Source: a virus
Taxonomy: Duplodnaviria; Caudoviricetes
DNA: 64,000 nucleotides
Virus record (IMG/VR): IMGVR_UViG_3300030060_005272
Span: 313-64,312 of that record
Direction: 5' to 3' (one strand)
The notes beneath the pieces are model-generated. The model ran no database searches and was not told where the DNA came from. It saw only the letters and a program-made list of their open reading frames with translations. Numbering within the stretch: position 1 is the first letter of the stretch; each line of letters begins with the position of its first letter. Shown here one piece after another: positions 26,953 to 49,305 of the stretch. The position numbers were made by a program, and so were the translations under genes.

Positions 26953-27287
26953 TATGCTGTTACCCTTGGTGTGACAGTTACAATTCCTTCTACAGCTCTC
27001 AACTTTGTGTTAGCAGATGTGTTGTGTAATGATAGATCGTAAACATATCTTCCTTCTGTTATGTTTGCTGTTACTGCATGAGTAAGTGCCATAGTAACTG
27101 TACCATTTGTACCACCAGTAGTACAAGTAAAAGTAGCAGTTGCATTTGTTGAAGAAAAGTGTTTACGTAGCTGAGAGTTTGCTGTATAATTAGATAAGTC
27201 TACTCGGGCGCCAGCTGCGTCTGTAATATCAATATCTGTGGAGAATGATGCCCCTTGATCTATTACAATGTTTGCCTTTGTCGCCAT
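26952..27287 (-). CDS. Conserved virion structural protein of T4-like marine phages
   Basis: NI.IDQGA.F, DL.NYT..SQ.RK, GRYVYD and R.VEGIVTV.P.VT. Confidence 0.75.
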   Translation of the reverse strand: MATKANIVIDQGASFSTDIDITDAAGARVDLSNYTANSQLRKHFSSTNATATFTCTTGGTNGTVTMALTHAVTANITEGRYVYDLSLHNTSANTKLRAVEGIVTVTPRVTA

Positions 27288-27345: not shown

Positions 27346-27897
27346 ATGAGTAAAATTGACGAATTACGACTTCATGGTCGCAACCGAAAGCTGCCTCCAG
27401 CTATCAAATTGGGGCAACTTACCCCAGAAATTACTGTACACAATTTATTTATATACCATTCTTTAGCGGATGATCCAGAGAATTTGACTGGCGAGAAGAC
27501 TGCACAGCACAGACATGAACATGCTGTAGCAGGAGTTAGTACTGGTGAACGCGTTTATGAATTAGGTGATTTCTACAATCAAATCCATACTGATGAGATT
27601 GTTTTACATTGTCCTTTTGATGTTACTAATACAAGATATGCTATGTTAGATCCAGATAATCATTTAGACTATCATATGGATCCACCCAACACATATAACA
27701 TTATTTGTCCTCTATCAGATCCAATAACAATAAAAACAAAAAAAGAAGAATACAATATAGATATAGGAGAGGTTTGGTTTATCAATCCAAGCTATGCGCA
27801 TGCATCGTTTCATAAATCAAAAGACGTTAGGGTTGCTGTCTTAGCAAACTTCGAGTACACAGAGGAAGTATATGACCACCTTACAAGGCTACTATGA
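27346..27897 (+). CDS. Fe(II)/2OG hydroxylase (aspartyl/asparaginyl beta-hydroxylase-like cupin)
   Basis: L.P...LDYHMD...GEVWFIN....H......R: HxD...H triad plus Arg. Confidence 0.65.
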   Translation: MSKIDELRLHGRNRKLPPAIKLGQLTPEITVHNLFIYHSLADDPENLTGEKTAQHRHEHAVAGVSTGERVYELGDFYNQIHTDEIVLHCPFDVTNTRYAMLDPDNHLDYHMDPPNTYNIICPLSDPITIKTKKEEYNIDIGEVWFINPSYAHASFHKSKDVRVAVLANFEYTEEVYDHLTRLL

Positions 27898-28801
27898 ACT
27901 AGAGCCAGAGGAGAATCACTTTACAGATGTCACTGCAGATGTAACTCACCAATGTAACATGACATGTCAAAATTGTTACATACCAAATAGAGATATTCCT
28001 GACATGGACATCGATCGTCTTATAAATACGATCAGTAGATTCCCAAAAAGAACTATGATCAGAATCATGGGTGCTGAGCCAACCATGAGGAATGATCTAA
28101 CTGATATTATAGTCAGGATCAGAAAGGCAGGGCATAGATGTACCCTGTTGACTAATGGACTGAAATTGGCTAGTATTAGGTATACTCGTAGTCTGCGACA
28201 GTCAAAGCTATCGCACGTCTACTTGTCATTGAACGGTGTTGATAATGATGATTGGTATGAAGCAATTGATGAACTTAGATGTGCTAAACAAAAGATTATG
28301 GCTCTTGAGAATATCAAGGCTTGTAACTTTATTGTTGACACCGGCACTATATTATGTAAAGGAATTAATGATGATGCCCCAAGTAGACTTCGTCATTTGT
28401 TCAAACAAAAGAATATCGACCACGCAATGATACGCTTCAAAAACGTTGGCCAGCATGGTAGGTATTTATTAGAGAGTGTAGACAACTGGAGCATGGATGA
28501 CATGATTCAGATGTGTGCAGATCATTATGGTCTATCTGTAGACTATATCAATTCATGGAAGGAGAAACCAATTTATGGCCAACATATTGAACCGGACACT
28601 TTTATGTTCCCCCTTAACCCGGATTCAATTGGAAGAGCGCTACATCGAAGCGGTATATGGATTAAAATTGCGGATTGGGATAGTCATATGGACTCTAGGC
28701 TTTACCCATTCATGGAGCAAACTCGCAGAGGAAGAATTACGGAGGACTTTAGAGTGGCGCCCCTTCCCGCGCATATCGTTGCTAACGAAGGAGGCTATTA
28801 A
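27872..28801 (+). CDS. Radical SAM enzyme (MoaA-like core, no auxiliary-cluster Cys motif)
   Basis: CNMTCQNC (CX3CX2C), MGAEPT, LTNGLKL and YLSLNG. Confidence 0.85.
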   Translation: MTTLQGYYELEPEENHFTDVTADVTHQCNMTCQNCYIPNRDIPDMDIDRLINTISRFPKRTMIRIMGAEPTMRNDLTDIIVRIRKAGHRCTLLTNGLKLASIRYTRSLRQSKLSHVYLSLNGVDNDDWYEAIDELRCAKQKIMALENIKACNFIVDTGTILCKGINDDAPSRLRHLFKQKNIDHAMIRFKNVGQHGRYLLESVDNWSMDDMIQMCADHYGLSVDYINSWKEKPIYGQHIEPDTFMFPLNPDSIGRALHRSGIWIKIADWDSHMDSRLYPFMEQTRRGRITEDFRVAPLPAHIVANEGGY

Positions 28802-29217
28802 TGAAGAAGTCATTAGTACCAGCGTTCTTCGAGAAACCAAAAGGTGATGAGCTCAACCCTATAAGATTATTGTATAATAATAAGAAGTATAAGTATTATT
28901 ATGTTGCAACTTATAAAGACACATACCAGGCGTACTTAGACCCTCAACAGTTTCATGCGTCTGGTAGACTACCATTTGAATTTGATAAGACTCTAAGAGC
29001 ATTTACAATAGAGAAGTGTTTCAGAGAGTTAAAGAATCATGGTGTCGGTACATGGTTGACTTGGTCAACTATAAGTGACCATCATACAATACATGATTGG
29101 ATAGCATGTAAGGATTGGTTGCCTCTAGCACTTATCAATAGAGATAATAAAGAGAGAGTAACGCAAGTGGATGAATTCTTGAGTATTACAAGAAGGTGGA
29201 TAGATGACACGCATTAA
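28801..29217 (+). CDS. Hypothetical protein
   Basis: 138-aa ORF coupled to its neighbours, GGAGG SD; no recognisable motif. Confidence 0.6.
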   Translation: MKKSLVPAFFEKPKGDELNPIRLLYNNKKYKYYYVATYKDTYQAYLDPQQFHASGRLPFEFDKTLRAFTIEKCFRELKNHGVGTWLTWSTISDHHTIHDWIACKDWLPLALINRDNKERVTQVDEFLSITRRWIDDTH

Positions 29218-30052
29218 TATTTACTGTATCAAAACTGTACACACTGAGACTCCATATCAAATGGAGTTTGATCCTAGTGAGTACTATACAGATGAACACG
29301 TATATCAATTGAAGGCTCAGATAGATGCAAACTTTAGTGAGCCATATAATTTTAACTTACTAACAAATCAAACAACTATAGCAGTACCTGGCATTAATAT
29401 CATTGATGTTAATGAATACAACCTATGGGGTTGGTGGAACAAGATGATGCTGTTTGATGAATCTATATCTGGTGATGGACTCAACATATACTTTGATCTT
29501 GATACAGTCATACAAAGAGACTTTGATCAAATGTGTGACTTTGCTGTTAAAGATAAACTTACTATGTTGTATTGTTATTGGAAACCTATCGATTGGGAAT
29601 CACAAGCATTCAAACAATCAGGGTTTGATCCAGACTTTGAGTTTGCTGCACTAGTTAATTCTTCTATCATGATGTGGCATGGTCACTCAATGAACTTTAT
29701 TACAAAAGAATTCATGCATGATCCAGAAACATATGCATTCAAGTTCAGAGGTAATGATGAATACATTAACCATTACCACAGAGATATAATCAACACACTA
29801 CCAAGAGGTTGGGCATACTCATACTTCTTTGGAGCTGAACAAGGTTCAGAGTTCTTTGCAAAAGATAAACAACCATTCCATCGTAGAGAAGCATATGTGT
29901 TTAGATTGCTCAATGGTATGGGTAAGAAGTATGTTGATCTCAATGCAGAAGATCATAAAGATAATCCATCAATGCATCTTGTACGTCAGCAGAAAGAACA
30001 CATTATTAAGACTGAACGTCAGCATGTGATAAGGAGTATTGAATATTATTAA
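29204..30052 (+). CDS. Glycosyltransferase-like protein (GT-A fold, DxD)
   Basis: GWWNKM.LF, IYFDLDTVI, NSSIMMW, RGNDEYI and YSY motifs of a widespread phage GT family. Confidence 0.75.
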   Translation: MTRINIYCIKTVHTETPYQMEFDPSEYYTDEHVYQLKAQIDANFSEPYNFNLLTNQTTIAVPGINIIDVNEYNLWGWWNKMMLFDESISGDGLNIYFDLDTVIQRDFDQMCDFAVKDKLTMLYCYWKPIDWESQAFKQSGFDPDFEFAALVNSSIMMWHGHSMNFITKEFMHDPETYAFKFRGNDEYINHYHRDIINTLPRGWAYSYFFGAEQGSEFFAKDKQPFHRREAYVFRLLNGMGKKYVDLNAEDHKDNPSMHLVRQQKEHIIKTERQHVIRSIEYY

Positions 30053-30800
30053 CTTGATGACTATGAAGTGGGGTGATAAGTTTGGTCCTGAGTATCCAAA
30101 CTTAATCCACAGAATGGCCAAGAAGCATTTCAATCAAGAGTTCAAATCCTATTGTATGACAGATGATCCAAAAGGATTAGACGAAGACATCAAAGCAGTT
30201 GAATGCACAGAACAATGGCTATGGAGTGATATAGTAAACAACGAACAATGGTACTTCTGGGATGGTATCAAGATGTCATTGTTTGCTCCTAAGTTATGTG
30301 GCATAGAAGGTAAGATACTATTCACTGATCTTGATAACTTATTTCTTGGTCCAATGGATAGAATACTTGAAACACCAACACCAGCAATGATTGCATGTGA
30401 CTGGATGCCACCTTGGCATGTTGGTATGCATGGTGGTAATTATTTTCTAACAATGTTGTTCAATGCCAGTTTGATATACGTAGACAATACTGATCCAGTT
30501 ACAAATGAGATATGGACACACTTTAGTAAGAACTATAAGATGATAAAGCAATCATTGTATAGTGCTGATGCTTACTTGTGGCGTAAGTGGAGACATAAGA
30601 TAAACACTTATCCAAAAGGATCTGTATACTCATTCAATAGAGGTGCTGCATATCCAGACAACTATACTGTGAAAGGTAGCGAGGCTAAATATAAGTATAG
30701 ACCAGATCATGCTGTCTGTGTCTTTATGGAAGATCATGAGCCAGACCCATTAGATATAAAAACTGGATGGGTAGCTAAAGAGTGGAAGCAATACCTATGA
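30039..30800 (+). CDS. Glycosyltransferase-like protein (GT-A fold)
   Basis: MKWGDKFGPEY, C.TDDP.GL, K.SLF, LFTDLD, FNAS and YSFNRGA; TTG start after AAGGAG. Confidence 0.75.
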   Translation: MNIINLMTMKWGDKFGPEYPNLIHRMAKKHFNQEFKSYCMTDDPKGLDEDIKAVECTEQWLWSDIVNNEQWYFWDGIKMSLFAPKLCGIEGKILFTDLDNLFLGPMDRILETPTPAMIACDWMPPWHVGMHGGNYFLTMLFNASLIYVDNTDPVTNEIWTHFSKNYKMIKQSLYSADAYLWRKWRHKINTYPKGSVYSFNRGAAYPDNYTVKGSEAKYKYRPDHAVCVFMEDHEPDPLDIKTGWVAKEWKQYL

Positions 30801-31441
30801 AGTTAGATGTTGTATGTATGAAGGTTGGCACAGGCTACAAACATGAGTTTGTTAACCAATTGTTTCACCAAGTCAAACATCAAGTCAATACCTTTACATG
30901 CTGGACTGATAATCCTAGAGGATTTGATCAGAACATACAAGTCTATGAATACAAATCATTTTGTGTTGATAGATTATGGTGGAACAAAGTAAACTTATTT
31001 GAACCTGGATTGTTTACTAACGATACAATATATCTTGATTTAGATTGTTATGTTCATGGTCAACTAAAAGAGTTTGTTAACAATGGTCAGATACTAAAGA
31101 CAACATGGTTCAGTAATGACATAAACAAATATATCTTTAACTGTGATGTTAACTCATCAATACTATATCTTAAAGATAACAATTTTGAAGAACAATACAA
31201 AGACTTTCAAGACAACAAAGAGAAGGTATATAAGTCATTCTATGGATTGGATGGCTGGATGTATAGAAGACATAGAGATAAGCTAAAGTTTTTTCCAAGT
31301 AAACTTGCATACTCATATAAGTATGGTTCATCGTTTCCAGATGATCTTGATGAGTATAAGAAGAGAGACAATCATGTTGTTGCATGTTTTGATAATGTAG
31401 AAGATAAGGAAGAAACGTTGAAACAATTTTGGGGTGATTGA
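30797..31441 (+). CDS. Glycosyltransferase-like protein (GT-A fold)
   Basis: VVCMKVGTGY, CWTDNP.G, WWNKV.LF, IYLDLD, NSSI and YSYKYG; likely start ATG 30797. Confidence 0.75.
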   Translation: MKLDVVCMKVGTGYKHEFVNQLFHQVKHQVNTFTCWTDNPRGFDQNIQVYEYKSFCVDRLWWNKVNLFEPGLFTNDTIYLDLDCYVHGQLKEFVNNGQILKTTWFSNDINKYIFNCDVNSSILYLKDNNFEEQYKDFQDNKEKVYKSFYGLDGWMYRRHRDKLKFFPSKLAYSYKYGSSFPDDLDEYKKRDNHVVACFDNVEDKEETLKQFWGD

Positions 31442-32076
31442 TGCAACATTATTCATTAGATAGAACATACCAGCTGTTCCATAAAGGGATGGGATATATA
31501 GCTGATAAGCATATATACAAGTTCAAAGATTATAGTGAATGTATATTTGAAACACAAATACAAAGTAAGTGGTGGTTAGTTGAGACACTAGTAGATGAGA
31601 GGTTTCGTGATAGACGAATTAAAGGTATTGATATCTTGGCTAGCTGGTATGGTATTGTCGTTGTTCCTATGCTTGTTAATCGTCTTGGTTATGATGTTCC
31701 TATTAATCTATATGACATTGATGAGTATACTTGCGATATTGCACAGCATATTTACAAAGATGAGTTTCCACAAGTAACAGTCAATCATAAAGATGTTGTA
31801 TTTGATAACTTAGATCTCAAAGGCAATGTTGTTATCAATTGTTCTTGTGAACATATGATGGATATGAAACATATAACAAACCAGTATCCAGATAAGTTAT
31901 ATGTATTACAAAGTAACAACAACAAAAATGTTAAATGGCTACACATCAATTGTGCTGAAGGTGCAGGAGAGTTAGCTACACAAGGACATCTTAGAAAGGT
32001 ATTCTATGGAGAGTCCAGAGAGTTCTTAGGTGCTAAACGTATAATGGTTATTGGAAAGGTCAACAAAGACGAATGA
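31438..32076 (+). CDS. Class I SAM-dependent methyltransferase-like protein
   Basis: Q..SK.WL, ILASWYG (motif I variant), YDIDE, VINCSCEHM, LQSNN, HINC and R.MVIG. Confidence 0.65.
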   Translation: MMQHYSLDRTYQLFHKGMGYIADKHIYKFKDYSECIFETQIQSKWWLVETLVDERFRDRRIKGIDILASWYGIVVVPMLVNRLGYDVPINLYDIDEYTCDIAQHIYKDEFPQVTVNHKDVVFDNLDLKGNVVINCSCEHMMDMKHITNQYPDKLYVLQSNNNKNVKWLHINCAEGAGELATQGHLRKVFYGESREFLGAKRIMVIGKVNKDE

Positions 32077-32159
32077 TATTAAAACTTTAATATAATGGTA
32101 ATATTACACTGAGTCCTAGAAGATATATAAAAGCTGATGAAGGTGTTGAGGAATGAAAG

Positions 32160-32639
32160 ATGAGTAAGACAGATAAACTTATAAAGAAAGTGACAAAAAT
32201 GGACCTAGGTAACCCAGTGATTACAGCTCTTGTTGGACTTGTAGTCTTCTATATTGGATTGAAGATGTTTTCTGGTGGGATGAAATCAATGGGCAACCTT
32301 AATCATCTGAGTTTCTTTATCCACAATCCATATTATATGTTTGTTGGTGGTATAGTAATGACACTATTGTGGCAGTCATCATCGCTATCAACAACAGCTA
32401 TTATTGCATTAGTAGCATCAGGAGCAGTGCCACTACCAGCTGCAGTTGCAGCTGTACTAGGAGCTAATATTGGTACAACAGGTACTATATGGTTAGCTGG
32501 ATTACTTGTATCAGATGGAATGCCTAAAGGTGATACATTACGTATAGCAATGGCACATACAGGAGTGAATCTGCTTATGGCAGTAACACTACTACCATTT
32601 GTACACCACATTGCGAGATTCTTAACAAGGTTTACATAA
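32160..32639 (+). CDS. Na+/phosphate cotransporter family protein, single repeat
   Basis: F..GL..FS.GMK, G...T.L.QSSS.ST, LGANIGTT.T and A.AH...N motifs of the SLC34/NptA family. Confidence 0.85.
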   Translation: MSKTDKLIKKVTKMDLGNPVITALVGLVVFYIGLKMFSGGMKSMGNLNHLSFFIHNPYYMFVGGIVMTLLWQSSSLSTTAIIALVASGAVPLPAAVAAVLGANIGTTGTIWLAGLLVSDGMPKGDTLRIAMAHTGVNLLMAVTLLPFVHHIARFLTRFT

Positions 32640-32640
32640 A

Positions 32641-33030
32641 ATGAAAATGATGATTGATAGCCAAATATATGGCTTTGTTATGTTACTATACAGTCAGCAA
32701 CTGTTCAATCAAATGTTTGTTGCTGAGCAAGATGCAGAATGGAAAAAGATCCAGCCTATTGTAAAAGAGCTTCATGAGTCTATGACTCCAGAGCATCAAT
32801 GGCAAGGTTATGTAAAAGCTATTGCATACAATGGGTTGGACAATATAACTTTCACAGGCCCTAAAGACCTGTGGTTTATAATGTATGCTATGTGTAACTA
32901 TAGAGTACCAGGTATAGATTTAGCTGACTCAGTAACAGCCAAGCACGAGAAGATATTATACTACGTGCTAGTGAACGTATGCAAAAAGTCTCATAAAAAC
33001 TATAATAAATTTGGATCGAGGTTTATTTAG
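32641..33030 (+). CDS. Hypothetical protein
   Basis: 129-aa ORF directly after the transporter; converges with the minus-strand operon. Confidence 0.55.
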   Translation: MKMMIDSQIYGFVMLLYSQQLFNQMFVAEQDAEWKKIQPIVKELHESMTPEHQWQGYVKAIAYNGLDNITFTGPKDLWFIMYAMCNYRVPGIDLADSVTAKHEKILYYVLVNVCKKSHKNYNKFGSRFI

Positions 33031-33796: not shown

Positions 33797-34634
33797 CTAT
33801 TAATCCTTCATCCTGTGGTCGGGCTGGTACTGTGTAGTGGTGAATAACTTTTGGGTGTTTTTCACTTAACTCAAAATCTCTGTATCCATTTACAAAGTTC
33901 CACTTTGGATGGATCTCTCGAATCTTGACTTCATAATTAGTATAAAAGTTTGTTCGCCAGAAAGCATACGTATCCCAGAACCATAGTGATCTTGGATGTT
34001 CAAATCTTTCGTGCCATGTTTTCTTGTTCTCAATTTGCTCCCTATAATTAGTATACCATGCATGCAACATTTTTAACGTATGCGGCTTATTATTATATAT
34101 AAACATTCCACAATGCCATAACATTCTGTATACTTCATTCTTAGCATTCTCTTCCCAAGAGTGAACTGCATACAATGGTTTACCATCTGGATCCCCATTT
34201 TCCCAGATTAGTTTCTTATCTTCTTCTTCGTAATGAGTAAGCTCTCTATCTTTCTTAAAGTAGACAACCTTAGCATTATATGGTCTATTAGTAGTCATAG
34301 CCATATCATAGTTATCAGGTAGATCATCAAAGATATACTTTATGTCTTCATGCTCACAATATGTGTCAGCATCCATATAGCATGTCTTATCAAATATAGT
34401 CTGATCTAATGCCCATAGCTTAGCTCGACAATGTGCTGGAACTCCAGTAACTATCTTATCAAAGATTCTTGAGTCTCTTGGTTCTTGTACCCAATCTTCA
34501 TGAGTAAACAACATTATCTTAGCTTCTGGCCAGTAGTCCTTTATGGACTGAGCTGACATTACAGCAGCATCATAATATGGTTTAGTCAGAGATCCTACAT
34601 ACAGAAAACCATTATTCGGCTGCTGCTGGGACAT
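33747..34634 (-). CDS. Glycosyltransferase-like protein (GT8-like, DxD)
   Basis: GFLYV, A..SA.S.KDY.P, RAKLWAL..T.FDKT.YMDAD, WNF and I.HY; likely start 34634 (MSQQ). Confidence 0.75.
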   Translation of the reverse strand: MSQQQPNNGFLYVGSLTKPYYDAAVMSAQSIKDYWPEAKIMLFTHEDWVQEPRDSRIFDKIVTGVPAHCRAKLWALDQTIFDKTCYMDADTYCEHEDIKYIFDDLPDNYDMAMTTNRPYNAKVVYFKKDRELTHYEEEDKKLIWENGDPDGKPLYAVHSWEENAKNEVYRMLWHCGMFIYNNKPHTLKMLHAWYTNYREQIENKKTWHERFEHPRSLWFWDTYAFWRTNFYTNYEVKIREIHPKWNFVNGYRDFELSEKHPKVIHHYTVPARPQDEGLIDDPNISNTIGNFDILK

Positions 34635-35409: not shown

Positions 35410-35420
35410 AATATAACTCC

Positions 35421-39512: not shown

Positions 39513-39518
39513 GACACC

Positions 39519-42500
39519 TTAACCTTGGAACATGTAGTTGGGGTCACCTAAAATATTACCCTGGTAGATCATGTTTACATAATCAGAGTCATAACCTTTA
39601 ATGGCTGCACCAGGTTTACCACCATCACCAGATCTTGCAAGTCTTGATTTCCTCAAGAATCTTTCACCACCACCGGTACCAACATTACCTAAGTCTCCAC
39701 CTTTACCACCAATGGCTCTTGAGTTACCATATTCCCAATCAGGAACACCACGGCTACCACCATTGATTAGATTACCTTCTTGTGGTAGGAATAACATATG
39801 ACTGTGATCAGCTTCAGTAGTACCTTCTTCACCAATGTTCCAACCAGCTCCACCAGAACCAGCTACACCAGTTGTCTCTGCAAATCCAAGATATGAAATG
39901 TTCACTTCTCTTGAATATGCTGTATCTTCAAATGTCTTAACATAGTCTTTTGTCCAAGACTTAGTATAGTCACCAGTATAAGTCTTCTCATAATCTTTAG
40001 TAAAGATACCTGTGTAAGTCTTGATCCAGTTCTTCTCATAACCTTTAACATATGCTTTGTTGTATGTTGTTGTTTGTGAGCCAGAAGCAAAACCACCGTA
40101 GAAGACAGGTCCAACATATGCCTTAGCATAATCTTTATTGTATATTACTAGATAGTCTTGGTTGAATGTACCTTCATATGCTTTTTGATATGCTTTTGTA
40201 TATACACCTTGATACAATTGATCATAGTTCTTGGTATATGTTTTGAGATATGTACCAATGAATGAACCTTTGGTGTTGTATACTCTAACAAATGTATCTG
40301 TGTACTCTTTGAGGAATGCACCATACACACCACCAGGTCTGCTATAGTTACCAAGATATTCTTTTATCCAAGTTGTAGCATAGTCTGCTGTGTAGTCTTT
40401 ATTGTACTCTGCCTCATAAGCCTTAACCCAATCTTTTGAATATGTCTTAACATATGTTGCAGTGTATGTTCCTGTGTACGATGCTTCATATTCTGCAGTG
40501 TAGTCTCTATCGTATGAGCCACCAAAGTCTTTCTGATATTGTTTTGTAAAGTCAGCAAGATATGTTGCAGAGTATTCACCAATGTATGTGGTAGAACCAA
40601 AACCCTTAGTCCATATTTTTGACCATGCTTTTTCATACTCTTTGTCATATGATCCTTCGTATTCTGCATCGTATGATCTTGAGAATGTTGCAGTGTATGA
40701 TCCAACATAATCTGCATCATATGCTTTAACATAGTCTTTTGTATATATTTTTGTATACGCTTTAGTGTAATCTTTATCATATGCTTTTGTATATGCTTTC
40801 GTCCACTCTTTAGCGTAATCAGCTGAATAGTCTTTAGTATACGTTTTGGTGTATGCTTTTGTAAATGCACCAGTGTAATCTTTTACATAATCCTTCTCAT
40901 ATGACTTAGTCCAATCACTTGAGTATGTCTTCTCATAACTCTTAGTGTATGCTTTTGTATATGTTGCAGCAGAGCTGTTCCATAACTTAGCATAGTCTTT
41001 GGAATAATCCTTATCGTAGTTCTTAGTATAGTCGCCAACATATACACGATCGTAGTTCTTAACATAACTCTTAGAGAAAGTTCCTTCGTAGTCTTTTTCA
41101 TAATCTTTGTTGTAATCTTTGGACCATGCTTTTGTATATGCAGCTTCATATGCTTTTTCATAATCTTTTTCATATGACTTGGTGTATGCTTTTTCCCAAT
41201 CAGTTGAGTAATCAACAGAGTATGCTTTTTCCCAACTCTTAGTATATGTTGCACCATCATAAGTAGGTCCTACATATGCATCGTCTGCACTCTCGTATGT
41301 CTTAGTATAGATACCAATGTATGTCTTAACATATGTTGCAAGATAATCTGCTTCATATTCTTTATCATATGCTCCACCCCACTCATCAACATAACTTCCT
41401 TGCCATACTTTGTCATATGCTTTTTGATATGTCTTTTCATATATGCCACCATATATTGTACCATCATATGTTTTGGTATATGTCTTAGTCCAATCTTTAG
41501 CAAATGCAGCACCATCATATGCTTTGTTGTAATCTTTTTCGTATACTTTAGTATATGTTTTTTCCCAAGCCTTGGTGTATGCTTTAGTCCATATCTTAGT
41601 ATATGTTTTGGAGTATGCTTTTGCGTATGATCCAACTGATGTAATAAATCCAGCAGACTCAAATCCACCATACGTACGACCAAATCTTACATTTGTATAT
41701 TCTTTTGCATAAAGAGCAACACCAGAGTCTGGAAGATAAGTCTTCATAAAGTTTGTTGGTGTCATTGCATCTTGCTGACCACCATGGAAAGATCCAGCCC
41801 AGTTTGAAGCCCAATCTTCTACCCAAGCCTTCTCCCAGTTAACTGTATAGTTAGCAGCAGATGAATCCCAAGCCTTAGCATATACCTTATCGTATGCTTT
41901 AGTATATGGAGATGCATATAGTTTAGTATAATCAACATCATAGTTCTCTGCTTGTGAGAATGATCCAAGCTCACCTCTTGATCCTGGTACTCCTGCAGTG
42001 TAAGCTGTCTGGCCAGTAAATCCAGAAACATATTCTTTGTTAAAGTCTTTAATGAAGCTAACTTCACCATCTCCATATGCTCTAGCAGATGTGAATTGTC
42101 CAGCTGCTCCAGTATAAGATGCTACGTCTTCATCAATCCAATACAATTGTCCAGTGTATGCTTTCTGGTATGCTTCAGTATAACTTGCATCGTATTGTTT
42201 ATTATATACTTTTTGGTAGTTTTTGAGATAGTCTTTCTCGTATGCGCCTTGCCAGATCTTAGTATATGTCTTGGACCAAATCTTAGTCCAGTTTGCATCA
42301 AAAGATCCTTCATATGCTTTTGCCCATACCTTAGCATAATCTTTTAGATAGTTACCAGTCCATACTTTAGTATAGTCTTTGGAATAAGCCTTGACCCAGT
42401 CTTTATTATATACTCCAACCCAAGCCTTTGCATAGTCTTTATTATAATCTTTAGTGTATGCTCCAACATACTCTTTATTGTATACCTTTTCCCAAGATTT

Positions 42501-45500
42501 AGTATAGTCAGCACTGAAATCTGTAGACCACACTTTAGTGTAGTCACCGGTGTATACAACCTCATATCCTTTGGCGTAATCTTTTGAGAAGATTCTTAGA
42601 TAGTCTGTACCGCCACCATTGAATGCTGCTTCAAAGTCTCTTGCATATCCTTTAGACCATACTTTTGTATACTCTCCTTGATATACTGTGCTGAAGTCTT
42701 TGGCCCATACTTTTGTGTAAACTTTATCATAGTTTTTAGTATATGTTTTGGTATAGTTACCTTCCCAGATCTTAGTATATGTCTTAGTATAGGTTGCATC
42801 AAATGAACCTTCATATGCTTTGGTATATGTCTTCTCCCAATCCTTAGCATATATTTTAGTGTAGTCTGCTGCATACTCTTTAACGTATACTTTTTCCCAA
42901 TCTTTATTGTATACACCAACATATGCTTTAGTATAGTCTGTAGAATAATCTTTGACATAGTCTGTTGAGTAGTCGCCAACATATACTTTAACGTAATTCT
43001 TGACCCAGTCTTTTGTATATGCTTTACTCCATGTAGCACCATATTCAGTAAGTACTCCAGAACCATGATATGTGTCACCAAGATATGTGGTTGTGTATAC
43101 ACCAGATTCTTTACTGTATGGATCAGAGATACCAGATGCACCTCCACCACCACCGCCACCACCAATGGTACCATAGTTCTCTATAAACAGATGTACGTTA
43201 GCTCCAGACTCAATAGCATGTCCACCATCACTACCATGACTACCTAGACCTCTTGTACTTCCATTTGCATCGCCACCATCTCCACCTTTACCTACAATGA
43301 ATCCAGTTGTGTAATTTACAATTCGTACAAGGTGTTTGATCTCTGCTTGTGTATCTCCTGAAACATTAGCTGTAACAGAATCCATATTCAAGTTTACAGC
43401 AGGAATATTATTTGCTGTAGAACCAAATACAAAGTTCTTAGTATAGTCATCTTTTACACCAACAAATATGTTCACTAATTGTGGAACAGTATCTGGTGTC
43501 TTACCTTTAGCTTCAAGATATGATTTTAAGTTGAAGTCATTTACATAGTAAGTGATCTTGCCCATATGAAGATCGTGACCTCGAGCTGAACCTGCATCAC
43601 TATCGCTAGTAAGAACTTCACCTTCATCTAAGAAGATATCAGTTGTATCGTAACCAATGTATGCTAGCTTCCATGTATCATCTTGCTTAGTATTTAAGTA
43701 CTTGACTTTCTTCCACTGACCAGATGCATGTACAAACAATTGCTTGACATTCTTCCAAGTATTGTCTTGCATGATATGAAGTTTAGGTTGACCAGCCAGG
43801 TTAGAATCAAGCTGACCACCAGAAGGACCTACGAAACTTGTTGTACCTTCGTAAGGAACATTCCTTGTTAGTGCACCAGTATATCTTTGTGTGAAGTCAC
43901 TATCACCAGTATATGATGGTGCAAAGCTGGCTATGTATGGACCTTCCCAAGTCTTAGTATAGTTAACAGGACCAGAATAATCAGTTGTTCCAGCATATGC
44001 TTTTAGATAGGCTGCTGCACCTCCATACGATCCGGTATAGTTAGCAACATACTCTTTTGCATAATCTTTAAGGTAACCTTTTGTCCAAGCCTTAGTATAG
44101 ACTTTATCATAGTCTTTGTCGTATGTTTTCTCGTAATCTTTGTTCCAACCTTTAGTATAGTCTGCAGCATAATCTGCTGACCATATCTTAGTATAGGTAT
44201 CACCAGACCCATCAACATAAGCCTTGGTCCAATCTTTAGTCCATACTTTGGTGTATACTTTATCATAGTTCTTGACATATGCTTTAGTATATGTCTTAGT
44301 CCAAACTTTTGTATAGTCTGCTGAGTAATCTTTTTCATACTCTTTTTCATAATTGTGACTATAGTTACCAGTCCAAGTTTTAGCATACTCAGTACCCCAA
44401 GCCTTACCATAAAATCTTAGGCCAGTATAGTTCTTGGTGTAGTGTATATTACCTTCCCAGTTCTTAGCACCGAGATAGTATTTGATGAATGTTGCAAAGA
44501 TACCTTCATAGGCTTTGGTGTAAGTACCTTGATACTCTTGAGTGTAGTCAGTCTCGTAATCTTTGACCCAGTTTTTAGTATACGTTTTGACATAGTCTTT
44601 TAAGTAGTCTTTGTCATAGTTCTTAGTATACTCACCCTGCCATAATTTGAGATAGTCTCTTGTATAGTGAGCTTCATATAATTTTGAATATGTCTTGCCG
44701 TAATCAACTGAGTAATCTGTTTCGTAATTTTTAACCCAGTTCTTAGTATACGTCTTAACATATACTTTGTTCCAGTCTTTGGTATAAGTCTTGACCCAGT
44801 TTTTATCGTAACTCTTAACCCAAGCTCTATCCCAAATCTTGGTGTACGCAGCTTCATAGTCTTTAGCCCACAGCTTTGTATAAACTTTATCGTAGTCTTT
44901 GACCCAATCTTTATTGTAGACTGCATCCCAGTTTTTGTCATAAGCAGCTACATAATCTTTCTCATATGCTTTGATCCAGTCTTTATCATACTGCTTTTCA
45001 TATTCAGTATCATAATTCTTGACCCAGTTCTTAGTCCATACCTTAGTATAGTCTTTTTCATATGTTTCAATATACTCTTTGTTCCAATCTGTTTCATAGA
45101 CCTTATCATAGTCTTTAGAGTATGCCTTCTCATATGTGGCATCAAAGGAACCTTCATATACTTTATCATAATCTTTAGAATATGCTTTTACCCAATCTTT
45201 GTTGTATGTTGCATCAAAAGAACCTTCGTAATCTTTAACCCAGTTCTTGACCCATTCACCAACCCAAACATTGACGTAATCTTTTACGTAGTCTTTGTTC
45301 CAAATTTTAGTGTAGACTTTATCGTAATCTTTTGTCCATATCTTAGTATACACACCAGTCCAAGTTTTGTCATATGCCTTGACCCAGTCTTTAGTGTATG
45401 TCTTATCGTATCCTTTTACCCAGTTTTTGGTATAGATTTTATCGTATGCTTTTTCATAATCTTTGTTCCAAACTTTAGTATAGTTTGCATCAAAGCTACC

Positions 45501-48500
45501 TTCCCAAACTTTGGTATAGTTTGTTGTCTGTGATCCTGATGCAAAACCACCATAGAAAACTGGACCTACATATATCTTGTCGTAGTTGCCTAACCATACC
45601 TTAGCATAAACTTTATCGTATGTCTTTTCCCAGTTCTTATTCCAGACCTTGGTATAATCTACGACGTAGTCTTTTTCCCATACCTTTGTATATACTTTAT
45701 CATATGCTTTTTCATACGTAGCATTAAACACACCTTCGTATGTCTTGTCATAATCCTTTGCCCAGATCTTAGTATAGTCTGCACTGTATGTTTTAACATA
45801 TGCTTTTTGGAATGATGTCCAATCAGCAGAATTTATTTGTTCTTGAGCTGTCTCGTTATCAGTAACATTGAAGTTACCAGTATACTTACCATTGGTTTTG
45901 TCTATTCTTAGATCATCAATGTAACCACCAATAGATGCATCTAACTGTCTTCTGTTACCAATTACTAATCTATTGGCTCCAGTTAAGTTAGCAGCTGAAG
46001 TATACGTTGCTGCATCAGCTGTACCATTAATGTATACTTTGATTGCGTTGCTTATTCTTACAATTGCAACATGAATCCAAGTATCAGTTGACCAAGGACT
46101 ATTGTCGTCTGCTGTAACTCTAGCTGTTGTTCCTTCGTAGAATATTATCTGACTAGGACTAGATGCATCGTTACCTCTGATAGCCCATTTAACACTATTG
46201 TCAGAAGAATCATATGCTTCCAAGATTGTAGCATTGTTTGTACCAACAGCTCTTAACCAAAACTCAATTGTAAAGTCTTCATTTTGAAAGTTAAAGTCAT
46301 CATCTGCAAAGTTAATTGTTAGACCACTAGATCCGGTACTTGGTACTTCTATAGATGCAGAACCAAATTTATTTTGATCTGTACTCTTAGCAGCATTTCC
46401 ATGTACAGTTGTAACATGGTTACCATTATCAGACGCGTCAATAAACTCTACATCACCATCGGTTGCATTTGGTATTTCAGCATTTAGTAATAGAACTGTC
46501 GTATCAAAGTTATCATATGGAACGTGATAAGATGTGACATAGTCTTTGCTGTATACACCAACCCATGCTTTTTCATATGCCTTGGAATAGTCTTTTTCCC
46601 AATTTCTATCCCAAATTTTTGTATACTCACCAAGCCAAACCTTATCATATGCTTTGACCCAATCTTTGGCCCAGATCTTAGTATATGCAGCAGTGTATGC
46701 TTTGATATAACCTTTGTTGTATGCTTTCGTATAGACTTTATCATAATCTGTTACATAGTCTTTTTCCCAAGTCTTACCATATGCTTTTATGTAAGCCTTG
46801 ACATAATTTTTCTCGTATGCTTTGACCCAGTTTTTCTCATACCTGCCAACCCATATCTTAGTATAAGCAGCATCGTATGTTTTTTGCCATACTTTTGTAT
46901 AGTCTTCAGCATAGTCTTTAGACCAATTTTTAAGATATATTTGATCATAGTTTGCAACATAATCTTTGTTATATGTTGCAACATAGTCTTTTAGATAGTC
47001 AGTGGTATATGTCTTACCATAATCTTTTTCATAATCTGTAACATAATCTTTCTGCCAAATCTTAGTCCAGATTTTTGTATATGTCTTGCCCCAATCTCTT
47101 TCCCAATCTTTGGCATAAGATAGATCGTAGTTCTTAGTCCATATCTTGGTATAGTCGGCACCATAATCTTTTTCGTAAGTAGCATTCCAAACTTTATCGT
47201 AGTCTTTAGCATATGCTTTGACCCAATCTTTGGAATAATCTGCTGCATAATCTGTTAACCAGTTTTTGGTATAGGTTGCATCGAAGCTACCTTCGTAAGA
47301 CTTGACCCAAGCCTTTTCCCAATCTTTTGTATAATCAGCTGTATATGCTTTCTGCCAAACTTTACCGTACGAAGTTGTTTGAGAACCAGAAGCAAATCCT
47401 CCATAGAAGACTGGACCAACATATGCTTTATCGTAATCTTTAACCCAATCTTTGGAATATACTTTGTTGTATAGTTTGATATAATCTTTGTTGTATATGC
47501 CAAGCCATGCTTTGCCATAATCTTCAAGGTAGTCTTTTGTCCAAACCTTTGTATAGATTTTGGTATATGTCTTTTCCCAATCTTTGGAATAGATTTTGGT
47601 ATATGGAACTTCATATGCTTTTGTCCATACTTTAGAATATACCTTATCATAATCTTTGTGATATGATGTACGATATGCAGCAACGTAATCACCAACATAT
47701 AATTTTTCATATCTTTTGGTATAAGTTTTTACATAATTTTTTTCGTAATCTGTGACGTAGTCTTTTGACCAGATCTTAGTATAAATTCTAAAGTAGTTAC
47801 CAATGTAATCTTTTTCATATACACCAACAAATGCAGAACCAAGATATGAGTTATCAGCCAGACCTTCATACGTACCAACATAGTCAGATGTTCCAACATA
47901 GTATACAAGAGTTTGATAATTTGTATCACCAGCATATGTACCTGTATAAGTTAGTCCATCGTAGTTTACGTTACCAAGATAAGACAGGCCACCAGACCAT
48001 ACTCTTGTAAAGTCTGCTACTGTTGTGTATGCTTTTGAATAGTTTTTGTTGAAGTTCTCTTCAGCCATGTATGATGCACGGCCAGTGTATGCTTTGATGT
48101 AATCAGCAGCACCAACATAGTTCTTATTGTAATCTACTGTACCAACATATGTCTTTGTATAGAATTGTGTAGCTTGATATCCTTTAGTGTAGTTCACAAA
48201 CCCTGTGAAACCAGCACCAGTAGAATCAAGATATGTTATTGCACCACCGTAGTCTTTACTGTAAACTATAAAGCTAGTTGCTCCTACCCATGCACCAGCA
48301 GAATAGTCTTTGTCGTAGTTTACATCAACTGTATATGATTTTGTATATGTTGCAGTACCACCATATGCTTTTAAGTAGTCTCTCTGCCACTCAGCTTGGT
48401 ATATTGTGTTACCAACATATGTTTTAGAATATGTTTTAGTATAAGTTGTTGAACCTTCATATGTTTTTGTATATGATGCAAAGCCAACAAATCCACTATA

Positions 48501-48998
48501 TGTTGGTGTGTATGCTAGTTCTCCAACCCATGTTGCTGTATATGCAGCACCATCATAGTTTCCATCACCAACATAACCAACAACACGACTGTATGCAATA
48601 TCAGTACTATATGTACCACTATAGTTGGCACTAATATTCATTTTAGCCCAGATATTGTCCGGTTGGTTACCTGTGGCTGAATAGTCTTTTCTGTATCCTA
48701 ATTGACCAGTAAAGTTCTTTAGTGATGTATATGCTTTTGAATAAGTATCAGTATCGTCTGAATTGTAGTTTACAAAGCCTTCATATGAAGCTGTGTATAC
48801 TCCAGCAAAGTTTGTTTGCCATGCAAGAGTTGATGTCCTACTATTAGTATAGACTCCCTCAAATCCATTATAGAATCCATGGAACGCATTTGTGTATACG
48901 ATGTAAGGAACTCTGGTACCTTGACCAGTGTACGAAACCTCAAAGGTCCGTTCCCCTCCAGCATATTCTTTTGCGTAAAGTCGATTCGAGTAAGACAT
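39519..48998 (-). CDS. 3159-aa repeat fibre/adhesin with [Y/W]-x-K-x tracts, a LamG-like domain and a split gp38-like Gly-rich domain
   Basis: Two long repeat tracts. LamG-like segment (DFTIEFW, W.HVAIVR, YING, GYIDDLRI) at about 45850-46515. Gly-rich gp38-like motifs at about 43130-43335 and 39519-39880. Confidence 0.8.
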   Translation of the reverse strand: MSYSNRLYAKEYAGGERTFEVSYTGQGTRVPYIVYTNAFHGFYNGFEGVYTNSRTSTLAWQTNFAGVYTASYEGFVNYNSDDTDTYSKAYTSLKNFTGQLGYRKDYSATGNQPDNIWAKMNISANYSGTYSTDIAYSRVVGYVGDGNYDGAAYTATWVGELAYTPTYSGFVGFASYTKTYEGSTTYTKTYSKTYVGNTIYQAEWQRDYLKAYGGTATYTKSYTVDVNYDKDYSAGAWVGATSFIVYSKDYGGAITYLDSTGAGFTGFVNYTKGYQATQFYTKTYVGTVDYNKNYVGAADYIKAYTGRASYMAEENFNKNYSKAYTTVADFTRVWSGGLSYLGNVNYDGLTYTGTYAGDTNYQTLVYYVGTSDYVGTYEGLADNSYLGSAFVGVYEKDYIGNYFRIYTKIWSKDYVTDYEKNYVKTYTKRYEKLYVGDYVAAYRTSYHKDYDKVYSKVWTKAYEVPYTKIYSKDWEKTYTKIYTKVWTKDYLEDYGKAWLGIYNKDYIKLYNKVYSKDWVKDYDKAYVGPVFYGGFASGSQTTSYGKVWQKAYTADYTKDWEKAWVKSYEGSFDATYTKNWLTDYAADYSKDWVKAYAKDYDKVWNATYEKDYGADYTKIWTKNYDLSYAKDWERDWGKTYTKIWTKIWQKDYVTDYEKDYGKTYTTDYLKDYVATYNKDYVANYDQIYLKNWSKDYAEDYTKVWQKTYDAAYTKIWVGRYEKNWVKAYEKNYVKAYIKAYGKTWEKDYVTDYDKVYTKAYNKGYIKAYTAAYTKIWAKDWVKAYDKVWLGEYTKIWDRNWEKDYSKAYEKAWVGVYSKDYVTSYHVPYDNFDTTVLLLNAEIPNATDGDVEFIDASDNGNHVTTVHGNAAKSTDQNKFGSASIEVPSTGSSGLTINFADDDFNFQNEDFTIEFWLRAVGTNNATILEAYDSSDNSVKWAIRGNDASSPSQIIFYEGTTARVTADDNSPWSTDTWIHVAIVRISNAIKVYINGTADAATYTSAANLTGANRLVIGNRRQLDASIGGYIDDLRIDKTNGKYTGNFNVTDNETAQEQINSADWTSFQKAYVKTYSADYTKIWAKDYDKTYEGVFNATYEKAYDKVYTKVWEKDYVVDYTKVWNKNWEKTYDKVYAKVWLGNYDKIYVGPVFYGGFASGSQTTNYTKVWEGSFDANYTKVWNKDYEKAYDKIYTKNWVKGYDKTYTKDWVKAYDKTWTGVYTKIWTKDYDKVYTKIWNKDYVKDYVNVWVGEWVKNWVKDYEGSFDATYNKDWVKAYSKDYDKVYEGSFDATYEKAYSKDYDKVYETDWNKEYIETYEKDYTKVWTKNWVKNYDTEYEKQYDKDWIKAYEKDYVAAYDKNWDAVYNKDWVKDYDKVYTKLWAKDYEAAYTKIWDRAWVKSYDKNWVKTYTKDWNKVYVKTYTKNWVKNYETDYSVDYGKTYSKLYEAHYTRDYLKLWQGEYTKNYDKDYLKDYVKTYTKNWVKDYETDYTQEYQGTYTKAYEGIFATFIKYYLGAKNWEGNIHYTKNYTGLRFYGKAWGTEYAKTWTGNYSHNYEKEYEKDYSADYTKVWTKTYTKAYVKNYDKVYTKVWTKDWTKAYVDGSGDTYTKIWSADYAADYTKGWNKDYEKTYDKDYDKVYTKAWTKGYLKDYAKEYVANYTGSYGGAAAYLKAYAGTTDYSGPVNYTKTWEGPYIASFAPSYTGDSDFTQRYTGALTRNVPYEGTTSFVGPSGGQLDSNLAGQPKLHIMQDNTWKNVKQLFVHASGQWKKVKYLNTKQDDTWKLAYIGYDTTDIFLDEGEVLTSDSDAGSARGHDLHMGKITYYVNDFNLKSYLEAKGKTPDTVPQLVNIFVGVKDDYTKNFVFGSTANNIPAVNLNMDSVTANVSGDTQAEIKHLVRIVNYTTGFIVGKGGDGGDANGSTRGLGSHGSDGGHAIESGANVHLFIENYGTIGGGGGGGGASGISDPYSKESGVYTTTYLGDTYHGSGVLTEYGATWSKAYTKDWVKNYVKVYVGDYSTDYVKDYSTDYTKAYVGVYNKDWEKVYVKEYAADYTKIYAKDWEKTYTKAYEGSFDATYTKTYTKIWEGNYTKTYTKNYDKVYTKVWAKDFSTVYQGEYTKVWSKGYARDFEAAFNGGGTDYLRIFSKDYAKGYEVVYTGDYTKVWSTDFSADYTKSWEKVYNKEYVGAYTKDYNKDYAKAWVGVYNKDWVKAYSKDYTKVWTGNYLKDYAKVWAKAYEGSFDANWTKIWSKTYTKIWQGAYEKDYLKNYQKVYNKQYDASYTEAYQKAYTGQLYWIDEDVASYTGAAGQFTSARAYGDGEVSFIKDFNKEYVSGFTGQTAYTAGVPGSRGELGSFSQAENYDVDYTKLYASPYTKAYDKVYAKAWDSSAANYTVNWEKAWVEDWASNWAGSFHGGQQDAMTPTNFMKTYLPDSGVALYAKEYTNVRFGRTYGGFESAGFITSVGSYAKAYSKTYTKIWTKAYTKAWEKTYTKVYEKDYNKAYDGAAFAKDWTKTYTKTYDGTIYGGIYEKTYQKAYDKVWQGSYVDEWGGAYDKEYEADYLATYVKTYIGIYTKTYESADDAYVGPTYDGATYTKSWEKAYSVDYSTDWEKAYTKSYEKDYEKAYEAAYTKAWSKDYNKDYEKDYEGTFSKSYVKNYDRVYVGDYTKNYDKDYSKDYAKLWNSSAATYTKAYTKSYEKTYSSDWTKSYEKDYVKDYTGAFTKAYTKTYTKDYSADYAKEWTKAYTKAYDKDYTKAYTKIYTKDYVKAYDADYVGSYTATFSRSYDAEYEGSYDKEYEKAWSKIWTKGFGSTTYIGEYSATYLADFTKQYQKDFGGSYDRDYTAEYEASYTGTYTATYVKTYSKDWVKAYEAEYNKDYTADYATTWIKEYLGNYSRPGGVYGAFLKEYTDTFVRVYNTKGSFIGTYLKTYTKNYDQLYQGVYTKAYQKAYEGTFNQDYLVIYNKDYAKAYVGPVFYGGFASGSQTTTYNKAYVKGYEKNWIKTYTGIFTKDYEKTYTGDYTKSWTKDYVKTFEDTAYSREVNISYLGFAETTGVAGSGGAGWNIGEEGTTEADHSHMLFLPQEGNLINGGSRGVPDWEYGNSRAIGGKGGDLGNVGTGGGERFLRKSRLARSGDGGKPGAAIKGYDSDYVNMIYQGNILGDPNYMFQG
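39910..43110 (-). repeat. Second [Y/W]-x-K-x repeat tract of the 3159-aa protein
   Basis: About 1070 residues of 4-residue periodicity between the two halves of the Gly-rich domain. Confidence 0.85.
43850..48990 (-). repeat. First [Y/W]-x-K-x repeat tract of the 3159-aa protein, interrupted by the LamG-like domain
   Basis: 4-residue periodic aromatic/Lys pattern, more irregular and Gly-rich at both ends. Confidence 0.85.
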
Positions 48999-49011: not shown

Positions 49012-49305
49012 CTAACTAAATGTCTGGTACCAGATATCTCCATTAGCGCCACCAGAAGGTGTCGATGTACTAACGTAGACAACATACTCGGAATCATTAT
49101 TAGATGCAGCTTCAAAGTTACGAGATGTCTTTGAGATGGCTGCTACACTTATAGCATTTACAAGTCCTCTACTAGTTACATTTGCCGTGACAGCAAAAGT
49201 TGTATTTCCAAAGTTGCCTGTTGATATGCCTGTATCCGGCAGTGTAGATGTTTGCACATTGGCTGTGCTGTTAACAATCGTAACACCGTTAACTTTTAAT
49301 GGCAT
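49012..49305 (-). CDS. Small tail-fibre-associated protein
   Basis: C-terminal YVSTSTPSGGANGDIWY, a motif common in phage fibre proteins. Confidence 0.55.
   Translation of the reverse strand: MPLKVNGVTIVNSTANVQTSTLPDTGISTGNFGNTTFAVTANVTSRGLVNAISVAAISKTSRNFEAASNNDSEYVVYVSTSTPSGGANGDIWYQTFS

Follow-up and report, generated by a model that had tools for sequence, protein, structure and literature searches.

Giant aromatic-repeat proteins of a putative hairpin fibre family and their linked enzyme-like genes in an uncultured marine T4-like myovirus

The window analysed here is a 64,000-nucleotide stretch (positions 313 to 64,312) of the IMG/VR virus record IMGVR_UViG_3300030060_005272, that is, nearly the whole of this 64,312-base record, whose CheckV completeness is 36%. 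Its minus strand carries a T4-like structural module, within which two giant genes encode the repeat proteins P0001 and P0002. Directly downstream on the same strand follow three smaller genes, on which a block of plus-strand genes converges (Table 1). An earlier note on this DNA, made from the sequence alone, had described two giant genes (about 13.6 kb) with hundreds of aromatic-x-Lys units, placed them between the baseplate and neck genes, and listed three same-strand genes behind them. Coordinates, counts and shuffled controls agree with the first statement and the flanking genes confirm the second; the three downstream genes are likewise real, encoding an acidic protein, a transferase-like protein with a Y-x-D-x-D motif and an oxygenase-fold protein.

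Together the genes of P0001 and P0002 occupy 13,572 bases. The number of [YW]xK units reaches 312 in P0001 and 143 in P0002, compared with 62.9 ± 6.9 (maximum 85) and 28.1 ± 4.6 (maximum 43), respectively, in residue shuffles. Autocorrelation of aromatic residues at lags 4, 8 and 12 amounts to 504, 447 and 439 in P0001 and to 239, 222 and 210 in P0002; the remaining lags from 1 to 11 give 4–59 and 0–31. The first position of the repeat is occupied by Y, then W, then F in order of frequency, the second mostly by T, E, V or D, and the fourth mostly by D, A, T or N. Lysine takes the third position in 322 of 504 units of P0001 and 150 of 239 units of P0002, and proline is almost absent from the repeats.

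P0002 is a member of a widespread protein family defined by its N-terminal domain. Residues 1–240 align with six relatives at 42–84% identity, and a profile of this stretch retrieves at least 261 relatives from IMG/VR. Among 1.84 billion representatives (clusters at 50% identity), the N-domain profile matches 488 clusters at E ≤ 1e-3 and 370 at E ≤ 1e-10. The best 150 family members listed are 92–1578 amino acids (aa) long, and complete open reading frames (ORFs) in fetched loci span 314–3134 aa. Most members are short (314–480 aa) and begin with the N-domain, which is followed by Y-[TS]-G-x repeats that continue beyond a central Gly-rich motif; the repeat tract comprises 52–223 residues in most relatives, i.e., arms of approximately 25–110. 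Short members end with L-W-x-R-T-A, and the C-terminus of P0002 is conserved too (L-W-x-R).

A tblastn search of 50,697 phage genomes with P0002 returned a single matching record, phage C48C1 (Kyanoviridae, OQ984149.1). The corresponding 3347-aa "hypothetical protein" is homologous to P0002 at both its N- and C-termini and carries [YF]xRx repeats. The third repeat position in relatives is Gly (short forms and a sister clade with giant fibres) or Arg (C48C1 and L112; L-numbers are our labels for related loci). Comparison of these sequences suggests that the window proteins are an expanded, Lys-substituted form of a common unannotated fibre protein.

An AlphaFold2 model of a 314-aa member (39-row alignment; predicted local distance difference test, pLDDT, 87) comprises the N-domain (residues 1–235) and two strands (236–268 and 271–312), which pair along their full length into one long beta-hairpin. 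The layout of the repeats in other members is consistent with this fold. In 17 of the 21 short proteins possessing a GG turn, this turn is located at 0.45–0.50 of the tract, with tract lengths of 68–223 aa. The repeat phase of P0002 holds for exactly 317 residues (80 aromatics) in each direction from the central motif, beyond which each arm has eight breaks at mirrored positions (i+j = 1578–1579). Seven of the eight break pairs are mirrored within 4 residues, a result reached in 0/2000 trials under a null model with a mean of 0.91.

The same test gave 8/8 mirrored pairs in L044, 15/16 in L050, 3/5 in L046, and 3/7 in both L045 and L049 (each 0/2000), as well as 3/6 in L048 (2/2000) and 3/7 in L102 (10/2000). 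Mirrored breaks therefore recur in eight proteins, with tracts from 1,100 to 2,860 residues. In different phages the two outer segments have the same length (213/213 or 445/445), indicating that expansions were matched in both arms. P0002 is most likely a single hairpin whose arms, of about 545 residues, would measure about 180 nm if extended; this estimate uses 3.3 Å per residue, the textbook rise for extended-strand arithmetic. By the same calculation, the 2965-aa member from L050 (10001-18896), with arms of about 1,360 residues, would reach about 450 nm.

P0001 carries the same repeats without the family N-terminal domain. Its Gly-rich segment matches the gp38 family PF05268 at E 1.3e-8 / 2.8e-10 (35.4–40.8 bits, cut-off 25), the match spanning only profile positions 38–120 of 218. 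Together with the lectin domain, this suggests that P0001 is probably the receptor-binding part. The 15-residue Gly-rich motif is found in four copies, one at the mirror centre of P0002 and three in P0001 (residues 528, 1145 and 2963). The P0001 copies are not central to any tract, and only the last one has arms of similar length (49 and 45 aa). A single mirror centre in P0001, or local centres at its three turn-motif copies, were looked for and none was found; P0001 presumably adopts a different topology from P0002.

Several results speak against the hairpin. The tip of the modelled hairpin has a pLDDT below 50 (residues 261–283), and mirror symmetry failed in L043 (0/10, though its central arms are 317/317), L112 (0/3) and C48C1 (1/13), was marginal in L064 (4/13; 168/2000) and is absent from P0001 (0/10). 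The repeats could instead form a solenoid, or parallel in-register strands contributed by several chains, with the palindromic layout having some other cause. The asymmetry of P0001 and the low confidence of the tip are in line with this alternative, as is the physical implausibility of a lone 180-nm two-stranded ribbon without oligomerisation. However, a solenoid imposes no equal-arm or mirror constraint, equal arms and mirrored breaks are present in eight proteins, and the turn stays central over a three-fold length range in the short forms, so we regard a fold other than the hairpin as very unlikely.

Structure comparisons of the short-fibre model returned no close relative. A Foldseek search with the whole model gave nothing at E ≤ 1e-3, its weak rows being long stem hairpins of pore-forming proteins, and the best match in a wide VIA search (MACPF C-terminal domain, Z 6.8) is below a trustworthy level. 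A three-copy complex prediction of the 314-aa member, performed without controls, scored 0.02 and 0.17 against a mark of 0.42, which speaks neither for nor against oligomerisation.

The genes downstream of P0002 accompany the fibre gene across the family. Linkage was assessed in 80 loci seeded with the N-domain, 64 of which were usable, with the fibre ORF complete and 2.5 kb or more of sequence behind it. A GT8-like transferase gene and an oxygenase-fold gene are each present in 64/64 usable loci, both on the same strand as the fibre, and the coiled-coil gene in 59/64; the two enzyme genes often overlap the fibre gene. Conversely, loci seeded with the oxygenase-fold gene contain the fibre in all 25 cases that reach upstream. 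Phage C48C1 has the same order of fibre, transferase and oxygenase-fold genes, and each of these three proteins matches only C48C1 among the 50,697 phage records. The earlier proposal that fibre-type proteins of the virion module are accompanied by dedicated enzymes is supported in so far as two enzyme-like genes are tightly linked to the fibre gene in all usable loci and in C48C1.

A T4-type late-promoter-like motif, TATAAATA, precedes both the fibre run and the coiled-coil gene. It has 13 matches in the window versus 7.4 expected, and its location before a gene start suggests that the copy at 50106..50113 may act as a late promoter. In 17 of 74 related loci the motif TATAAATA lies within −78 to +11 nt of the fibre stop codon, where about one occurrence is expected by chance. 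Taken together, there is strong evidence that the fibre gene and the coiled-coil, transferase and His-x-Asn (HxN) oxygenase-fold genes form a functional unit, which does not imply a particular chemistry.

Table 1. Features of the window, with positions counted from its first letter
Feature	Position	Strand	Remarks
P0001, 3159-aa repeat protein	39519..48998	-	three repeat tracts, LamG lectin domain, gp38-like segment
Laminin_G_3 / concanavalin-A-like lectin domain, P0001 residues ~898-1032	45903..46307	-	PF13385, E 6.9e-19, above cut-off
gp38 adhesin-like Gly-rich segment, P0001 residues 1868-1959	43122..43397	-	PF05268; phrog_2056, E 7e-11
P0002, 1363-aa repeat protein	35421-39512	-	
P0002 N-terminal alpha/beta domain, residues 1-235	38808..39512	-	family-defining
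P0002 putative hairpin arm 1, residues 236-780	37173..38807	-	eight phase breaks, then period-4 repeat without interruption for 317 aa (464-780)
P0002 central Gly-rich turn motif, residues 781-797	37122..37172	-	
P0002 putative hairpin arm 2, residues 798-1343	35484..37121	-	317 aa unbroken (798-1114), then eight breaks mirroring arm 1
P0002 conserved C-terminus	35421-35483	-	
Acidic, Lys/Glu-rich 275-aa protein	34612..35439	-	"coiled-coil" from composition only
Putative GT-A fold, GT8-like nucleotide-sugar transferase, ~295 aa	33747..34634	-	invariant Y-x-D-x-D
Double-stranded beta-helix HxN protein, ~257 aa	33023..33796	-	invariant H134-x-N136 ... H206 ... R214
TATAAATA, T4-type late-promoter-like motif	50106..50113	-	142 nt upstream of the 219-aa fibre-tip gene heading the fibre run
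TATAAATA, late-promoter-like motif	35489..35496	-	50 nt upstream of the coiled-coil gene
Convergent accessory block	27346..33030	+	nine ORFs
Asp/Asn-hydroxylase-family protein	27346-27897	+	Asp_Arg_Hydrox, E 5e-6, above cut-off
Radical S-adenosylmethionine (SAM) protein, 309 aa	27872-28801	+	PF04055, E 2.4e-14, 54.3 bits vs cut-off 29.5; C28-x3-C32-x2-C35
ORF without assigned function	28801-29217	+	
Three phrog_1962 "glycosyltransferase"-like genes	29204-30052, 30039-30800, 30782-31441	+	E 1.6e-13, 9.4e-6, 3.4e-12
Methyltransferase-like ORF	31438-32076	+	language-model lead only
159-aa half Na/Pi cotransporter	32160-32639	+	PF02690, E 1e-15
ORF without assigned function	32641-33030	+	
111-aa homologue of L-shaped tail fibre assembly protein	26952..27287	-	
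97-aa protein, function unassigned	49012..49305	-	31-97% identical matches at the same position in related loci
219-aa protein, tail-fibre C-terminus and endosialidase-chaperone (Peptidase_S74) domain	49305..49964	-	PF13884, E 4.5e-13
Baseplate wedge genes and 2191-aa DUF4815 protein	50183-63448	-	one flank of the giant genes
Neck, sheath-stabiliser, terminase, sheath, portal and capsid genes	11016-25853	-	other flank of the giant genes

Among the three partners, the 275-aa coiled-coil protein is conserved only in its C-terminal ~40 residues and is a candidate fibre chaperone. The ORF of the transferase is open to 34676, and its homologues begin at ATG 34634. The Y86-x-D88-x-D90 motif is invariant in 16 sequences; a C-terminal H-Y-T is also invariant. 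Profile comparison with solved structures listed 19 matches at E ≤ 10, all of them GT8 and weak (E 0.095–1.8); the best, Skp1 alpha-galactosyltransferase (E 0.095), followed by glycogenins (E 0.16–1.8), is not significant. Its language-model neighbours are nucleotide-diphospho-sugar transferases, including a cluster (score 0.95) with Glyco_transf_8 in 30% of members. A profile-profile comparison of this family with the three phrog_1962-like ORFs aligned only 21 columns around the DxD, with a probability of 1.4%, which does not demonstrate common ancestry.

The HxN protein was modelled with a pLDDT of 81.7. Foldseek returned 51 matches at E ≤ 1e-3, and all those listed are 2-oxoglutarate (2OG) oxygenases. 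In the VIA comparison, 66 chains reach Z ≥ 8, among them PHD2 (Z 9.3; root-mean-square deviation 3.9, 151 residues aligned), P. putida P4H (Z 9.1), a Dictyostelium prolyl hydroxylase (Z 8.8) and the PBCV-1 collagen prolyl hydroxylase (Z 8.4). R214, invariant and eight residues past H206, is located on the following strand of the model; from this position it could serve as the basic residue for the 2OG C5 carboxylate. Despite its HxN, the protein may function like an Fe(II)/2OG oxygenase. No Pfam or NCBIfam family matches it, and comparison of the family profile with solved structures was discarded, as it produced only chance-level rows (GST, PrgX).

Other evidence weighs against a catalytic role of this pair in fibre maturation. 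The transferase has no significant family match (in Pfam only DUF1647 with E 0.041 and Glycos_transf_2 with E 0.3; in NCBIfam none). In the oxygenase-fold protein, HxN...H replaces the HxD/E...H facial triad in 16/16 aligned and 51/51 further distinct homologues, for which reason it is not filed as a member of the Fe(II)/2OG oxygenases and may not be an oxygenase at all. Phage C48C1 has two HxN copies away from the fibre, one of them in the replication module. The loci used for linkage are not independent, as several are near-identical and both locus sets share contigs, and shared gene order in a single phage lineage may stem from common descent instead of function.

These proteins could be non-catalytic adaptors, chaperones or lectin-like modules that retain an enzyme fold. 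Replacement of the metal-binding carboxylate by Asn throughout the HxN family and the lack of any matching enzyme family model for either protein would suit such a role. However, the invariant residues are precisely those of the would-be active sites (H134, N136, H206 and R214 in one protein; Y-x-D-x-D and the C-terminal H-Y-T in the other), a pattern to be expected of functional sites, and we give the non-catalytic alternative little credence.

As to copy number, C48C1 carries three HxN genes in total: one beside the fibre, one flanked by DnaB-like helicase and NifU-like genes, and one with a TAA stop. A single copy per genome is found in four IMG/VR records, one of which is 99% complete.

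The plus-strand block converging on the core genes was described in the earlier note as a hydroxylase, a radical SAM enzyme, three glycosyltransferase (GT)-like genes and a methyltransferase. All of these are recovered except the last, for which Pfam and NCBIfam offer nothing and the sole lead comes from a language model, which scores it at 0.96 to a viral cluster carrying Methyltransf_31 in 21% of its members, and the block contains three more ORFs that had not been listed. The only NCBIfam match of the hydroxylase is the lipid hydroxylase OlsC (E 0.0034, 16.6 bits vs cut-off 450). The best NCBIfam rows of the radical SAM protein, TrsS, MoaA and Tes, are all far below their cut-offs, as is a row for the peptide maturase WgkB (E 1.2e-6, 27.8 bits vs cut-off 650); neither Pfam nor NCBIfam provides a SPASM or other C-terminal match beyond residue ~220. 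The best-conserved of the three phrog_1962-like GTs has no match in cultured phages. The half Na/Pi cotransporter is encoded in L011 and L012 and is absent from the near-identical L010 and from L013. The block begins without TATAAATA, with only a TATAAT-like hexamer at its start. The 3' ends of its last ORF and of the oxygenase-fold gene on the minus strand share 8 bases (33023-33030), leaving no room for a terminator between the convergent units.

The distribution of these genes is restricted. In the window's clade, the GT and methyltransferase-like genes are present in 12 of 13 loci, the thirteenth being cut. The radical SAM and hydroxylase genes are confined to this clade, where 11 of the 12 loci extending far enough carry them; both are missing from L018, whose repeats are still of the Lys type (K 202, G 51). 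The locus L020/L050 possesses both, yet its repeats contain more Gly than Lys. No block gene was found in 19/19 sister-clade loci, where fibres are 1,700–3,100 aa long and the HxN gene leads straight to the fibre-assembly gene; this direct succession of oxygenase-fold gene and tail fibre assembly homologue is general in relatives without the block. Short-fibre loci have GT-like (53/64) and methyltransferase-like (34/64) genes a few kb downstream, mostly on the opposite strand. Because giant fibres exist without the block, and Lys-type repeats without the radical SAM and hydroxylase genes, the block is a clade-specific accessory island, possibly extending a fibre glycan or targeting the host envelope.

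This has consequences for the proposal, made in the earlier note, of one dedicated nine-gene cassette acting on lysine. A single cassette is not supported in view of the block-free sister clade and L018. Co-occurrence of enzymes and repeat genes across relatives holds for the core pair and fails for the block. Lysine as the common target is likewise unsupported, since relatives keeping both core enzymes have Gly or Arg at the third repeat position. A version that assigns decoration or cross-linking of the [YW]xKx units to the entire cassette, through collagen-like lysyl hydroxylation and glycosylation and/or an aromatic-Lys cyclophane made by the radical SAM enzyme, could draw on the pairing of Lys/Trp-rich repeats with the hydroxylase and radical SAM genes in the window's clade (11/12 loci), on the sub-cut-off WgkB row, and on the aromatic-x-Lys unit, which we take to resemble the three-residue motif of cyclophane-forming radical SAM maturases. 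However, Lys is not conserved where the core enzymes are, L018 and L020/L050 uncouple repeat type from the two block enzymes in both directions, and the radical SAM protein lacks a SPASM match and has its best rows far below cut-offs. We consider this cassette model highly improbable.

Alternatively, the GT8-like and phrog_1962-like transferases, the hydroxylase of the LpxO/OlsC family and the other enzymes may remodel host lipopolysaccharide (LPS) or envelope lipids, causing a superinfection block or changed recognition, and may lie beside the fibres only through a hypervariable island. The pelagimyophage island between VrlC and gp14 has the same layout, and its authors, in the available text, favour modification of the host O-chain (PMC7029224). 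The weak OlsC match of the hydroxylase points the same way, OlsC being a lipid hydroxylase, and so do the moron-like coming and going of the Na/Pi transporter, the missing TATAAATA at the block start and the absence of the block from 19/19 sister-clade loci. By contrast, the GT8-like and oxygenase-fold genes are invariant (64/64 loci), on the fibre strand, often overlapping and preceded by a late-promoter-like motif, and among cultured phages their proteins match only the one that also has the fibre. These arguments do not protect the convergent block, to which envelope remodelling may well apply; as an account of the enzymes as a whole, we find it unlikely.

On balance, we lean towards an explanation that combines an expanded hairpin fibre family, core partners serving the fibre, and an accessory island. 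According to it, the repeat tract of P0002 would run out from the N-domain, reverse at the central Gly-rich turn and pair antiparallel with itself, forming a two-stranded beta-hairpin that brings the conserved C-terminus back to the N-terminal domain. In the window, the arms would have been lengthened to ~545 residues, with Gly at the third repeat position becoming Lys. The coiled-coil, GT8-like and HxN genes would serve the fibre, presumably a virion component, late in infection. Their most likely roles are those of a chaperone and of enzymes hydroxylating and glycosylating a conserved fibre feature. As candidate targets we propose aromatic or Thr positions or invariant N-domain prolines, not lysine. 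The family, its synteny, the folds and the mirror symmetry are established here, and the oligomeric state, presence in the virion, catalysis and the substrate are presumed. The accessory block could add to this glycan or target the host envelope.

A bolder form of this explanation seems to us rather doubtful. It posits a single-chain antiparallel hairpin of hundreds of nm, its length tuned by matched arm expansions, matured by a GT8-like/HxN pair that installs a new modification. The His-x-Asn metal site would then be unprecedented, and O-glycosylated tyrosine or a hydroxyproline-linked sugar could be named as candidate modifications.

Upstream of the giant genes, the 219-aa fibre-tip protein also matches many tail-fibre PHROGs. 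The 97-aa gene keeps its place just upstream of the giant genes in related loci; in L050, ~9.7 kb upstream of the fibre gene separates it from the 97-aa gene homologue. The capsid protein is 62–70% identical alike to those of Stenotrophomonas, Pelagibacter, Methylophilales, Synechococcus and Sinorhizobium myoviruses, which the available text of PMC7029224 places in the "Cyano-T4" group. We take the fibre locus to be the host-recognition region of an uncultured marine myovirus of this group. A nucleotide search with the whole region gave no match among the 50,697 phage records, and psbA is absent from five related records, one of them 99% complete.

Two further ORFs of the minus strand deserve mention. 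A 142-aa endonuclease-like ORF (21487-21915; phrog_452, E 1.2e-26), located directly upstream of the large terminase gene and overlapping its start, may by sequence encode a homing endonuclease. A 208-aa protein (25857-26483) has a weak match, below cut-off, to the N-terminal domain of a major tropism determinant (PF18454, E 0.001); many related loci have its homologue next to the fibre-assembly gene.

The range of cells open to a phage is decided by its tail fibres, and those of abundant uncultured marine T4-like phages are almost unknown. The family described here comprises hundreds of clusters, has no solved relative and covers a ten-fold length range through matched expansions of two arms. 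If the hairpin is true, it would be among the longest regular beta structures formed from one chain and a suitable natural model for the way in which fibre length, and hence reach in dilute water, depends on repeat number. The fixed partnership of transferase and HxN protein offers a testable case of fibre modification, as an alternative to the published view of host-surface remodelling. Conservation of HxN in every homologue examined (16 aligned and 51 distinct) is a question for metalloenzyme chemistry.

Within known systems, the nearest architectural counterpart is the tip of the T4 long tail fibre, in which every gp37 chain forms a hairpin by doubling back on itself. This needle is likewise the distal fibre of a T4-like phage with a thin beta structure, described in the available text of PMC6957217 as trimeric with metal sites along its length. 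Unlike gp37, the hairpin family has no HxH iron motif, consists of strict tetrapeptides with an aromatic residue every fourth position, and has arms at least ten-fold longer; the short-fibre model including its N-domain has no significant structural match by Foldseek or VIA. A second link to T4-like fibres is provided by P0001, whose segment matches the gp38 family of T2/S16-type adhesins above cut-off.

The closest genomic counterpart is the pelagimyophage "host recognition cluster", which lies between the baseplate gene VrlC and the neck gene gp14 and contains tail fibres, concanavalin-A-type domains, numerous GTs (GT8 being the commonest) and radical SAM cassettes (PMC7029224, available text). 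Its position is the same and its gene mix similar to those in the window. That text treats the island as hypervariable and non-syntenic and reads the transferases as modifiers of the host O-chain. It mentions neither the repeat family nor the hairpin layout nor the unit of fibre, coiled-coil, transferase and HxN genes, although the figures and supplements of the paper may show the genes. The association had been taken in the earlier note to be undescribed: the broad association of fibre, GT8 and radical SAM genes is already in print, whereas the repeat family, the palindromic layout and the four-gene unit were found in no paper searched. In the open-access literature covered, on phage C48C1, on virion glycosylation with fibres and on Tyr/Gly repeat or hairpin fibres, neither the P0002 family nor its hairpin architecture nor its strict pairing with the two enzymes is described.

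For the enzyme pair, comparable systems hydroxylate and then glycosylate proteins. By fold, the HxN protein best matches prolyl hydroxylases, the Dictyostelium and PBCV-1 enzymes among them, and the best, non-significant match of the transferase is the Skp1 alpha-galactosyltransferase. Skp1 is modified by the prolyl hydroxylase PhyA and the glycogenin-like Gat1, and hydroxylation followed by glycosylation is also known for collagen, including by collagen-modifying enzymes of mimivirus and chlorovirus. The window differs from the Skp1 and collagen systems in having HxN instead of HxD and nearly proline-free repeats, and the matches are at the level of fold or non-significant. Among phages, transferases encoded beside structural genes reportedly modify virion proteins of mycobacteriophages, as stated by Freeman and colleagues in 2023. 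The present case concerns another phage lineage and another transferase family, with a fibre as the presumed substrate and a constant oxygenase-fold partner.

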